This document shows positions 6,802 through 7,728 of a DNA stretch of 64,000 bases, one piece after another (position 1 is the first letter of the stretch; each line of letters begins with the position of its first letter). The DNA lies in the sequence record PQ330092; one strand, given 5' to 3'. This DNA is from Escherichia phage JP4. The notes beneath the pieces were generated by a model. The model was not told where the DNA came from. It did no database searches and saw only the letters and a list, made by a program, of their open reading frames with translations. The translations under genes and the position numbers were made by a program.

Positions 6802-7728
6802 TTGAAACAAGCGAAAAAAGCACTGAAAACTAAGACTACTTATGGTGTTCTAGTTTGCACAGTACTTGTCGCTGCGATTGGATTTTATGGTTTTTCTCAA
6901 AATGATCGTGTATCATCATCGGACGAAAGTCAGGTACACAATTTAAAACCACAAGTTACGCAAATTCAAAAGCAGGAATTACCAAAGGTAGAAATATCAA
7001 AGGATGTTCCACGCGGCGAGAAGCATTATACGGTTCAACCTGGTGATAGTTATTATTCTATTGCTAAAAAGTTTAAACCTAAAAATGTACAACTTGAAGA
7101 GTATGTTATTTTGTTGAAAAATATCAATTTAAATGCTACTCTTCATACTTCTCAGGGTATCTTTATCCCAACAAAAGAGGATTTGAAGAACGTATTGTTA
7201 CCAGATGTGACTGTACTGTTTGATTATAATGATCCAGAAATTGTCAATCACATCAAAGAAGCTGAAGGTTCAATTGAATTTCAGTCCAAGAACAAACGCC
7301 GTTTACTTGGTGGGAAAGTCGGAGTTCCTTTCCACAATTCTAAATTTCATCCCTACAAGGACATGAAAGGTAATTATACAATAGGTTATGGGCATTATTT
7401 GGGTAGAAAAGAATCTGATGCGATTAAGTACAGAAACGGTATTACCAAAGCTCAAGCCAATAAACTTTTAATGCAAGATATGAAAAGAACATATAATGAC
7501 TTTTTATTATTGATGCAGAAAAAAGAAGCAGTAAATCTGACCAAAGAACAACAACGTATTCTTTATGAAATGTCCTATACAATGGGTGTTGATAAATTAG
7601 CAACGTTTAATAAACTTTGGAAAAGTGTGAAAAATGATAACCCTAAGAAATTTAAAAAAGAAATTATGAATTCCTTATGGTATCGTCAAGTTACAAACCG
7701 AGCAGATTTGTTGTTAAGTTCACTCTAA
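6802..7728 (+). CDS. Membrane-anchored LysM + T4-lysozyme-like (GH24) muramidase
   Basis: N-terminal TM helix (YGVLVCTVLVAAIGFYGF), LysM-like HYTVQPGDSYYSIAKKF, C-terminal YKDMKGNYTIGYGH and SLWYRQVTNRADLL matching T4 lysozyme YKDTEGYYTIGIGH / SRWYNQTPNRAKRV; start TTG 6802 after AAGGAGG (alternative TTG 6769). Confidence 0.75.
   Translation: MKQAKKALKTKTTYGVLVCTVLVAAIGFYGFSQNDRVSSSDESQVHNLKPQVTQIQKQELPKVEISKDVPRGEKHYTVQPGDSYYSIAKKFKPKNVQLEEYVILLKNINLNATLHTSQGIFIPTKEDLKNVLLPDVTVLFDYNDPEIVNHIKEAEGSIEFQSKNKRRLLGGKVGVPFHNSKFHPYKDMKGNYTIGYGHYLGRKESDAIKYRNGITKAQANKLLMQDMKRTYNDFLLLMQKKEAVNLTKEQQRILYEMSYTMGVDKLATFNKLWKSVKNDNPKKFKKEIMNSLWYRQVTNRADLLLSSL

Follow-up and report, generated by a model that had tools for sequence, protein, structure and literature searches.

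A probably membrane-tethered LysM and T4-type lysozyme of an Asteriusvirus jumbo coliphage, with a putative catalytic glutamate displaced by a 23-residue insertion

The window, by which we mean the whole 64,000-nucleotide stretch of Escherichia phage JP4 (record PQ330092), is from an Asteriusvirus jumbo coliphage, with phage UB at 99.7% nucleotide identity. The locus described here carries a lysozyme gene with the following reading frame and start signal.

6769-7728, plus strand: open reading frame, with the in-frame stop TGA 6766 directly before it
6802..7728, plus strand: coding sequence of a 308-aa LysM-GH24 lysozyme; TTG start, TAA stop, 927 nt
6790-6797, plus strand: Shine-Dalgarno sequence AAAGGAGG, 4 nt before TTG 6802 (direct reading)

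A first-pass annotation of this DNA had wavered between TTG 6802 and TTG 6769 as the start. TTG 6802 is supported, because the orthologues that were checked begin at the aligned position behind AGGAGG, and it follows a strong Shine-Dalgarno sequence. In 9 orthologous loci AGGAGG or AGGAGA is kept ahead of the start codon, and 7 of them combine a TTG or GTG start with a consensus Shine-Dalgarno sequence upstream. TTG 6769 was rejected: it has no Shine-Dalgarno sequence, the in-frame stop at 6766 lies immediately before it, and the orthologues begin at the aligned Met. An internal start producing a soluble isoform was rejected as well: the sole candidate preceded by a Shine-Dalgarno sequence, a TTG at L128 (7183), is not conserved, this codon being TTA in 3/9 orthologues and an SD-like sequence being found in only 2.

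The coding sequence has the length and relative position of the annotated CDS in 121Q, UB and phAPEC6, and its product matches phrog_15410 over the full length (E=3e-173); a search of NCBIfam returned no match above cut-offs. Orthologues are 121Q gp532, phAPEC6 gp293c, CBB_187, GAP32 gp180 and RaK2 gp506. Residues 14-308 show 99.7-100% identity to the proteins of 121Q, PBECO4, UB, slurp01, G17, SP27 and phAPEC6; they are 100% identical in 10 deposited phages, and the genomic position is the same in 121Q, UB and phAPEC6. All the elements named at first pass are present where they had been placed, far beyond chance. Its description of the architecture as unusual needs tempering, since a transmembrane, LysM-like and lysozyme arrangement was published for this very family, CBB_187/121Q gp532, in 2017 (Buttimer et al., PMC5259590). 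The same authors predicted the protein to be the endolysin of Rak2-like jumbo phages, proposed a SAR-like mechanism and stated that induction of CBB_187 is toxic to E. coli ('data not shown'; PMC5259590). Neither the gene nor the three-module layout of its product is new, both being in GenBank and in print; one small detail, the displaced Glu, is undescribed. The published accounts of the 121Q gp532 family that we consulted mention neither the displaced Glu with its insertion of 23 residues, nor the non-ATG start, nor the leader element described below.

Judged by its sequence, the product of 6802-7728 is probably an exported, membrane-tethered LysM and T4-type lysozyme. It consists of a Lys-rich N-terminus, a hydrophobic segment (residues 13-31), a LysM module (75-123) and a GH24 domain (144-308). 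The modules ahead of the GH24 domain are as follows.

6838..6894, plus strand: hydrophobic segment, residues 13-31, TYGVLVCTVLVAAIGFYGF; the most hydrophobic 19-mer and a predicted N-in/C-out signal anchor
6895..7023, plus strand: low-complexity linker, residues 32-74, Ser/Gln/Pro/Lys-rich and of variable length; pLDDT below 50, many indels among homologues
7024..7170, plus strand: LysM peptidoglycan-binding module, residues 75-123 (Pfam, AF2, BFVD)

A Lys-rich tail (residues 1-12, five Lys, +5) precedes the hydrophobic 19-mer, and hydropathy bears out the N-terminal membrane anchor that had been proposed; TMHMM predicts a transmembrane domain in the family (PMC5259590). AF2 gives no confident structure for residues 1-72. 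The LysM module, also named at first pass, holds on two grounds. The Pfam LysM profile (PF01476) matches residues 76-92 above its gathering cut-off (E=1.1e-4, 22.5 bits against 20.9), with only profile positions 1-17 of 43 aligned, and a LysM match is present in 39/63 homologues (best E=1.3e-6). Moreover, the AF2 model has the beta-alpha-alpha-beta fold of a LysM module (beta 75-77, helix 84-91, helix 98-108, beta 119-121; pLDDT 85-90), and structural matches to the LysM domain were found in BFVD.

The C-terminal half contains the following features.

7231..7725, plus strand: GH24 (T4-lysozyme-type) domain, residues 144-308 (PF00959, PDB matches, AF2, Foldseek)
7264..7269, plus strand: E155-G156, inferred catalytic Glu (general acid), invariant and at the C-terminal end of helix 145-155 (AF2)
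7273..7341, plus strand: 23-residue insertion I158-S180, IEFQSKNKRRLLGGKVGVPFHNS, a single hhalign gap against the canonical class
7360..7380, plus strand: D187...T193, triad residues corresponding to D20/T26 of T4 lysozyme (T4L) by alignment, invariant in 63 homologues

Pfam Phage_lysozyme (PF00959) matches residues 182-289 (E=1.5e-11, 45.1 bits, gathering cut-off 22.3) and is matched by all 63 homologues of the conservation set, which range from 46-89% identity. Sequence matches in the PDB are to T4L and a phiKMV-type internal virion protein. AF2 pLDDT is >85 over residues 73-308 and 85-96 in the GH24 domain. Almost all of the top 50 Foldseek matches in the PDB are T4L or T4L fusion constructs (one is a designed lysozyme), with probability 1.00 and TM-scores of 0.66-0.69 normalised to free T4L chains. 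The segment YKD-MKGNYT-IGYGH aligns with T4L residues 18-31, placing D187 on D20 and T193 on T26, and the likeness to the Asp20/Thr26 region of T4L recorded at first pass is recovered by BLAST, phmmer and profile alignment alike.

The catalytic Glu is not at its usual distance. As had been observed, there is no Glu 9 residues upstream of the Asp: position -9 from D187 is H178, and homologues have H, Y, R, K, Q, S or N there. The only EG upstream of D187 is E155-G156, at -32, so that the triad spacing reads E-31aa-D-5aa-T and not the canonical E-8aa-D/C-5aa-T. E155, G156, D187 and T193 are invariant in the 63 homologues. In an hhalign comparison with 83 GH24 proteins of standard spacing, E155-G156 falls on their canonical EG (Prob 100%, E=1.4e-45), with ...IKxAEGS lying on ...lkxxEGf, one 23-residue gap, and the alignment resuming at FxPYKD. 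The suspected insertion near the catalytic N-terminus is therefore located by hhalign to 23 residues (I158-S180) between the Glu and the Asp/Thr region, ahead of the first canonical beta-strand. Judged from the profile alignments, the catalytic Glu only seems to be missing, an alignment artefact of this insertion.

The insertion is bridged only by profile-profile alignment of class-specific multiple alignments with greedy MAC. BLAST, phmmer and hhalign of the family profile against single T4L never bridge it, their alignments beginning at T4L residue 15-18, and the Pfam matches of the lysozyme and its paralogues begin at profile positions 8-11, beyond the Glu. Two layers can be distinguished within it, 13 residues in common with an 'EG[ST]xxYQ' subfamily and 10 family-specific residues (the KRRLLGGKVG region). 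Q161, R166, L168 and G171 are invariant in the 63 homologues, and extra short beta-strands are predicted in the insertion, DSSP on the AF2 model assigning strands at 166-168 plus short bridges. Discrete Glu-Asp spacing classes (9, 22 and 32) recur in GH24: a census of the position of EG relative to the Asp gave -9 in 78 proteins, -22 in 21 and -32 in 74. The long-spacing GH24 proteins listed have R, K or Q at -9 and never Glu. No solved structure with long Glu-Asp spacing was found, the best structural match other than T4L, the phiKMV-type internal virion protein 28sd/gp36, having canonical spacing (FEAYRGEAYKD).

The 5' leader and the intergenic region contain three candidate elements.

6658..6685, plus strand: sigma70-like promoter candidate (TTGTAA, 16-nt spacer, TATACT, with TG upstream of the -10)
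6717..6742, plus strand: conserved leader element TGTAGAAAGTCC-GATGA-GGCTTTTGC, a potential 9-bp hairpin
6745..6760, plus strand: second leader hairpin ATGGCC-TCTTTG-GCCAT followed by a T-rich run, a terminator- or attenuator-like match

The promoter candidate was found by consensus scan within the 168-nt intergenic region 5' of the gene. The number of sigma70-like sites in the upstream region is not above shuffle expectation, and 6658..6685 alone is therefore weak evidence for a promoter. Better sites are seen by eye at the same relative place upstream of orthologues, namely TTGACA-17-TATAAT (P0069), TTGACA-17-TAGACT (EJP2) and TTGACA-17-TATAGT (P0058). The sigma70-like promoters upstream suggest early, not late, transcription, which speaks against an endolysin role. 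T4 gene e is also transcribed early, and early promoters are thus compatible with an endolysin. We found no transcriptome for Rak2-like phages in the literature, and neither an orthologue nor transcript data for PA5oct.

The core of the leader element is sequence-invariant among orthologues of only 52-62% protein identity, the remaining leader diverging. A search at 0 mismatches finds it only once in the window; the hairpin that RNAalifold predicts for it shows no covariation, and an Rfam search of the leader gave no match. At the place of 6745..6760, orthologues have by eye a hairpin of other sequence. With its TTG/GTG start and conserved leader element, expression of the lysozyme appears to be deliberately damped.

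The immediate neighbours of the gene are an HPF/RaiA homologue and proteins of unknown function, with a CCA-adding enzyme, a NUDIX hydrolase and a glutaredoxin further downstream. No lysis cassette, holin or spanin was found among the neighbours with PHROGs; the spanins of 121Q, gp511/512, lie ~8 kb upstream on the same strand. That the gene lies outside any lysis cassette counts against an endolysin role.

Two in-genome GH24 paralogues are present, 121Q gp586, a 162-aa soluble T4-type lysozyme, and the C-terminus of the gp5-like hub protein gp587, a virion baseplate protein. They share 36% and 30% identity, respectively, with the lysozyme across the full catalytic domain, EG motif included, as well as the long-spacing layout and the 13-residue insertion layer (subfamily 'EG[ST]xxYQ...NxKFxxYxD'). 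Neither has a transmembrane segment, a LysM module or the 10 family-specific residues, and the gp586 family belongs to the -22 spacing class. LysUE1, the UE-S1 orthologue of gp586, was purified, lysed E. coli and is reported to be muralytic (PMC12805682). The soluble 162-aa gp586-family lysozyme could be the real endolysin, and it is not among the listed virion proteins of CBB (PMC5259590). The gp586 gene lies inside the baseplate gene cluster, adjoining gp5-like and gp25-like genes, and its product may therefore be tail-associated.

A virion (tail or ejection) lysozyme was considered for the 308-aa protein and rejected, because it has no structural domain and its phAPEC6 orthologue is not in the virion proteome. 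That orthologue, gp293c (99.7% identical), went undetected in virions by ESI-MS/MS; the gp5-like lysozyme gp241 was detected. The label 'baseplate hub and tail lysozyme' in the G17 record is annotation carry-over from the shared GH24 domain.

Taken together, the best explanation, to which we give a better than even chance, is an exported, membrane-anchored and catalytically competent LysM-muramidase, likely the endolysin or one of two. In this view a Rak2-like (Asteriusvirus) jumbo coliphage would make a peptidoglycan hydrolase that is exported through Sec. The Lys-rich N-terminus and segment 13-31 of the enzyme are predicted to insert N-in/C-out in the inner membrane, and its disordered ~43-residue linker would carry the LysM module and GH24 muramidase domain into the periplasm. 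There, E155 would act as the general acid, with D187 and T193 completing the triad; the 31 residues between Glu and Asp, instead of 8, would be due to the conserved, beta-rich insertion I158-S180, which lengthens the loop joining helix A to strand 1. The domain is most likely active and not degenerate, as the EG is aligned, the triad is invariant, the long spacing is recurrent and LysUE1 is reported to be muralytic. The protein may accumulate at a low level, as the conserved TTG/GTG start and structured leader suggest, and stay stably tethered in preference to being released. Murein would then be attacked when the membrane is de-energised or permeabilised late in infection. Most likely the protein serves as an endolysin with holin-independent export, or as one of two endolysins. 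Consistent with the first-pass view that this is no canonical soluble endolysin, an N-terminal export/anchor segment and LysM are present, no internal start is conserved and no holin gene is a neighbour.

Among the alternatives, a true SAR endolysin is the strongest, though we regard it as unlikely. Here the segment would exit the bilayer when a holin or pinholin collapses the proton-motive force, freeing a soluble periplasmic LysM-lysozyme, a mechanism proposed for the family by Buttimer et al. (PMC5259590). The segment is short (~18 residues) and marginally hydrophobic in the manner of known SAR domains, with a summed Hessa-scale value of about +1.1 kcal/mol (family mean +0.2) compared with +0.5 and +0.8 for the SAR references P1 Lyz and phage 21 R, on a crude scale. 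However, its Gly/Ala/Ser/Thr fraction is 0.37, below the 0.53-0.63 of three SAR references and equal to that of the stable FtsN anchor, 0.37. Ahead of the segment stand five Lys, where the SAR references have one or two basic residues. The triad departs from the E-8-D/C-5-T spacing. Moreover, 112 residues (linker, LysM, linker) lie between the segment and the GH24 start at 144, and the known modes of SAR control, active-site caging and refolding by the SAR helix, are inapplicable as such because the 43-residue linker and LysM part the segment from the catalytic domain. Lastly, in the distant TM-LysM-GH24 relatives P0080, P0082 and P0083 the hydrophobic segment comes after a conserved domain of ~80-95 aa (pairwise E=7e-12 and 2e-9) that is predicted to be cytoplasmic. 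Such a domain would be unable to cross the membrane behind the segment and is incompatible with an anchor let go into the periplasm, which argues against release as a family-wide mechanism. The SAR label of the literature for the 121Q gp532 family is doubtful.

It is somewhat less likely again that the protein is not the terminal endolysin and instead remodels murein early from the membrane, in cell enlargement or bulging or in local wall thinning over the long jumbo-phage cycle, with a gp586-type enzyme lysing the cell. The sigma70-type promoters upstream in several orthologous loci fit such a role, as does a conserved synteny that ties the gene to translation and metabolism genes instead of to those for holins or spanins. 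Lysis could fall to the second T4-type lysozyme, which is soluble, reportedly active and absent from the CBB virion protein list, and cells infected with the related phage Sharanji filament, bulge and then burst (PMC11895373). Against this, gp586 is encoded in the baseplate cluster and may be tail-associated, and only ~8 kb separate the lysozyme gene from the spanin genes, which share its strand.

Less probable still is a secreted soluble enzyme, in which a Sec signal peptide would be cleaved after A24-A25 or nearby to give a free periplasmic LysM-lysozyme. A24 and A25 are nearly invariant, V/A-x-A before I26 fits the -3/-1 rule, and the N-termini of P0079 (…LTLSHA/NIT), P0081 (…STSKA/SRT) and P0088 (…SAAEA/TPR) resemble cleavable signal peptides by eye; lactococcal phage P335 endolysins with a TMD/signal peptide and LysM are known (PMC9371310). 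However, the putative site lies midway along the hydrophobic stretch, which runs on as IGFYGF with no polar c-region, and the TMHMM prediction cited above also favours a transmembrane domain.

A catalytically dead, membrane-anchored peptidoglycan-binding protein with GH24 turned binding module, one option of the first-pass annotation and suggested by the lack of an acidic residue at the canonical -9, is very improbable, since E155-G156 is invariant and aligned with the catalytic EG, D187 and T193 are invariant, the displaced-Glu layout also occurs in LysUE1 with its reported lytic activity, and the CBB orthologue is toxic when expressed (PMC5259590).

At about the same low probability as the early remodeller, we further entertain a protein that is not the terminal endolysin but a stably anchored, early-transcribed murein hydrolase, kept at a low dose by the conserved non-ATG start and structured leader. 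It would either remodel the sacculus over the long jumbo-phage cycle, as cells widen or bulge, or serve as a tethered, pre-positioned lysin with a control mode unlike those of holin-endolysin and SAR systems. If true, the family-specific basic insertion part KRRLLGG next to the active site could be a regulatory or substrate-selecting element. The significance of these findings is modest. The GH24 spacing classes matter for annotation pipelines and lysin engineering, and an answer to which of two non-virion lysozymes lyses the cell would clarify the timing of jumbo-phage lysis, on which SAR status and damped expression likewise bear.

In comparison with known systems, 121Q gp532, CBB_187, GAP32 gp180, RaK2 gp506 and phAPEC6 gp293c are the same gene, with nothing substantive different. 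T4 lysozyme (gene e, PF00959) shares the fold and the Glu/Asp/Thr triad, with 26-29% identity over T4L residues 16-152. However, T4L is soluble, holin-dependent and single-domain, its Glu-Asp spacing is 9 against 32 here, and its region of residues 35-50 is longer, being deleted in the 308-aa lysozyme. The P335 endolysin (PMC9371310) likewise joins an N-terminal TMD and LysM wall-binding modules to an exported muramidase, and it has been proposed to stay at the membrane up to its release, but it differs in its Gram-positive host, GH25 domain, two C-terminal LysM modules and predicted signal-peptidase site. The SAR endolysins P1 Lyz, phage 21 R and phiKMV gp45 also place an N-terminal hydrophobic export segment of marginal hydrophobicity on a T4L-type muramidase, and holin-independent Sec export is expected in both cases. 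In contrast to theirs, the segment of the 308-aa lysozyme is not adjacent to the catalytic domain, is poorer in Gly/Ala and has five Lys ahead of it, and the triad is spaced otherwise.

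The DNA in the window is that of an Asteriusvirus (Rak2-like) jumbo coliphage: across positions 5000-10000, Escherichia phage UB shares 99.7% identity with it, and nine further listed records (PBECO4, G17, Sharanji, SP27, vB_EcoM_E9.1 and others) share 94-99.5%. The lysozyme ORF spans 6769-7728 (+), and the first-pass annotation had left its start uncertain between TTG 6802 and TTG 6769. The sequence AAAGGAGG at 6790-6797 forms a Shine-Dalgarno (SD) sequence, followed by a 4-nt spacer and TTG 6802. Moreover, the annotated CDS in 121Q, UB and phAPEC6 is also 927 nt and has the same relative position, and in all 25 homologs for which the full alignment was displayed, the N-terminus coincides with the Met encoded by TTG 6802. 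TTG 6769 lacks an SD and lies immediately 3′ of an in-frame stop (TGA 6766). Therefore, the start at 6802 is supported. Residues 14-308 of the product are identical (100%) to products of ten deposited phages, orthologs include 121Q gp532 and phAPEC6 gp293c, and phrog_15410 matches the entire protein end to end (E=3e-173).

Parts of the 308-aa lysozyme encoded at 6802-7728 (+)
N-terminus: Lys-rich tail, MKQAKKALKTKT
Residues 13-31: single hydrophobic segment, TYGVLVCTVLVAAIGFYGF
Residues 32-74: variable, low-complexity linker, pLDDT <50
Residues 75-123: LysM module, followed by a short linker
Residues 144-308: GH24 domain

The proposed layout of hydrophobic segment, LysM and GH24 is present by hydropathy (residues 13-31) and by Pfam, in which Phage_lysozyme (E=1.5e-11) and LysM (E=1.1e-4) both score above the gathering cut-off. 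The Pfam LysM alignment is limited to the first 17 profile positions; LysM was matched in 39/63 homologs (best E=1.3e-6), the AF2 model has the beta-alpha-alpha-beta topology (pLDDT 85-90) and Foldseek recovers BFVD LysM-domain models. Both gene and architecture are already known. Buttimer et al. 2017 predicted CBB_187/121Q gp532 as the endolysin, described its TM, LysM-like and lysozyme parts, with LysM clearest in 121Q gp532, and suggested a SAR (signal-arrest-release) mechanism; they also reported that E. coli grew poorly or not at all once the gene was induced (growth inhibition; PMC5259590). What remains new is small: the displacement of the Glu together with discrete GH24 spacing classes, doubt on the SAR label, and a conserved non-ATG start with a leader element.

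D187 and T193 align with T4 lysozyme (T4L) D20 and T26. The residue at -9 from D187 is H178 and the sole Glu-Gly (EG) motif is E155-G156, 32 residues upstream of D187, so the first-pass observation is right. Simple sequence methods, including Pfam, did not bridge the gap between EG and the Asp region. E155, G156, D187 and T193 are invariant in 63/63 homologs (46-89% identity), and position 178 varies between H, Y, R, K, Q, S and N. In the AF2 model (domain pLDDT 85-96) E155 lies at the C-terminal end of helix 145-155, matching T4L E11, with which helix A ends; between E155 and the canonical strand FHPYKD the model has additional short beta elements. The top Foldseek PDB matches are T4L itself: the TM-score normalised to T4L is 0.66-0.69, and the 173 alignment columns cover practically all of T4L.

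A census of GH24 proteins drew on a word-index homolog search and on an exhaustive HMMER search of 1.8 billion representatives, from which the 150 best matches were taken (222 proteins in all, 217 examined). The quantity recorded was the spacing between the D-x5-[TS] anchor and the EG closest to it on the N-terminal side. The spacing is discrete, with 78 proteins at 9, 21 at 22 and 74 at 32, the class of the window lysozyme; spacings of 14/15, 24 and 31 are represented by few proteins each. The -9 residue is Glu in class 9, and R, K or Q, never Glu, in the individually listed long-spacing proteins. In every long-spacing class Pfam PF00959 alignments miss the Glu. We then compared class-specific alignments with hhalign, each including 25 residues upstream of EG. 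Class 32 aligns with class 9 (Prob 100%, E=1.4e-45), pairing ...eiixxIKxaEGs with ...lxxxlkxxEGf, and after a single 23-residue gap (I158-S180) resumes at KFHPYKD. The gap is 10 residues between classes 32 and 22 and 13 between classes 22 and 9, which makes the insertion two-layered. The first layer is 13 residues common to the widespread subfamily EG[ST]xxYQ...[FY][RK]NxKFxxYxD, and the second a family-specific basic stretch of 10 residues (KRRLLGGKVG) holding the invariant R166, L168 and G171. Conservation, predicted structure, spacing census and profile-profile alignment all point to E155 as the displaced catalytic Glu, and to a loop insertion predicted to preserve the active site rather than a degenerate enzyme. 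With E155 aligned to the canonical Glu and the triad invariant in the 63 homologs, the suggestion of a catalytically modified binder falls. The other half of that interpretation, an exported or tethered lysin, is supported.

The predicted export signal can be read in three ways. Our preferred reading for the Asteriusvirus protein is a signal anchor, stable or semi-stable. The segment could instead be a cleavable signal peptide with a signal-peptidase site at A24-A25, judging from sequence; this pair is nearly invariant in the family, and the N-termini of three other relatives (P0079, P0081 and P0088) resemble classical cleavable signal peptides. A SAR mechanism is doubtful. By crude measures of hydrophobicity, composition and charge, the segment is marginally hydrophobic (summed Hessa-scale +1.1; family mean +0.2), near the values for the references P1 Lyz (+0.5) and phage 21 R (+0.8). 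However, its Gly/Ala/Ser/Thr fraction is 0.37 against 0.53-0.63 in SAR references, five Lys precede it against one or two basic residues, and it lies 112 residues from the catalytic domain, so that the known SAR refolding activation cannot apply. Moreover, three distant TM-LysM-GH24 relatives (P0080, P0082 and P0083; 394-405 aa) carry a conserved 80-95-aa domain N-terminal to the segment (pairwise E=7e-12 and 2e-9). This domain, which would be cytoplasmic, makes them bitopic, with an anchor unable to leave the membrane. The robust common ground is that the LysM and GH24 domains are predicted to be exported through Sec, without need of a holin.

Predicted expression signals in the window and in orthologous loci of relatives (L007-L012)
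6658-6685: candidate sigma70-like promoter upstream of lysozyme
6717-6742: 26-nt leader element; L007 3900-3923, L009 3913-3934, L010 1401-1422, L011 1413-1435, L012 1423-1444
6745-6760: second hairpin, of variable sequence, 3′ of the element
6802-6804: lysozyme start codon; L007 4001, L008 3975, L009 4001, L010 1501, L011 1501, L012 1501

The start is TTG or GTG after a consensus AGGAGG in 7/9 orthologous loci, with ATG only in two metagenomic relatives. Among the orthologous loci, the most divergent has a perfect sigma70-like promoter, TTGACA-17-TATAAT, and two others have TTGACA-17-TAGACT and TTGACA-17-TATAGT. Downstream of these promoters lies the 26-nt element, TGTAGAAAGTCC-N5-GGCTTTTGC (also written TGTAGAAAGTCC-N5-GGCTTTGTGC), which occurs once per locus and is invariant in six loci whose proteins are 52-62% identical; the remaining leader diverges. 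It can form a 9-bp hairpin, with no covariation and no Rfam match, and may be a 5′ mRNA stabiliser, translational control element, attenuator or protein-binding site. Conservation of a weak start codon suggests that selection has kept translation of a toxic product low; the codon and the structured leader together would limit its dose.

ORFs neighbouring the lysozyme
5876-6007 (+): 43-aa ORF, phrog_37784
7745-8077 (+): HPF/RaiA (ribosomal S30AE, 'sigma-54 modulation protein') homolog
8544-8729 (+): 61-aa ORF, phrog_4189
8720-9133 (+): 137-aa ORF, phrog_20693 (E=9e-63)
9120-9542 (+): 140-aa ORF, phrog_20693 (E=3e-55)

Gene order is conserved at 43-58% protein identity: (RNA ligase ...) - lysozyme - HPF/RaiA - (small ORFs) - CCA-adding enzyme - NUDIX - glutaredoxin. 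The HPF/RaiA gene lies directly 3′ of lysozyme, a position kept in most relatives, and a ribosome-hibernation factor beside a CCA-adding enzyme is notable in a jumbo phage. In the 61-aa product, the N-terminal hydrophobic segment terminates in a Cys (…GVGVMIYC/DAEP), and there are three more Cys; this small protein may be exported or lipoprotein-like, although it lacks a canonical lipobox. The adjacent 137- and 140-aa ORFs overlap by 14 nt and are a tandem duplicate. The 43-aa product combines an NP motif with an amphipathic N-terminus and a TM segment at the C-terminus, and 44-46-aa homologs lie two or three genes upstream of lysozyme in GAP32, SE_PL, fHe-Yen9-03 and two metagenomic relatives; that it is a small holin- or antiholin-like membrane partner is pure speculation. 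In the most divergent locus (L008, from a metagenomic relative, encoding P0069), the gene directly upstream of lysozyme (3618-3857) has a 79-aa product that contains two hydrophobic segments and whose C-terminus is highly basic. By eye this product resembles a class II holin, and it has no PHROG annotation; a terminator and the perfect sigma70 promoter follow its gene.

No PHROGs lysis family was matched among the nine neighbouring ORFs. The curated 121Q spanins gp511/gp512 (245337-246017) lie ~8 kb upstream on the same strand, just beyond the window. In the phAPEC6 virion proteome the 96-kDa lysozyme gp241 was found and gp293c was not. The hub label in G17 record MK327931.1 was likely carried over through the shared GH24 domain: the lysozyme has no hub domain, and its phAPEC6 ortholog does not appear in the virion proteome. 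A soluble gp586-type lysozyme is a candidate competing endolysin: its gene is located in the baseplate cluster, but the list of CBB virion proteins does not include its ortholog (PMC5259590).

Spacing-22 proteins (within P0075-P0222) include soluble lysozymes of 145-175 aa, gp5-like hub C-termini and exported forms. PDB searches found no solved structure with a long Glu-Asp spacing, and the best match other than T4L, a phiKMV gp36-type internal virion protein, keeps the canonical spacing. Two members of the spacing-22 subfamily are encoded by 121Q itself, both with EG aligned to that of the window lysozyme: the C-terminus of the gp5-like hub protein gp587 (30% identity) and the 162-aa paralog gp586 (36% identity), whose purified ortholog LysUE1 is reported to be lytic on E. 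coli (PMC12805682).
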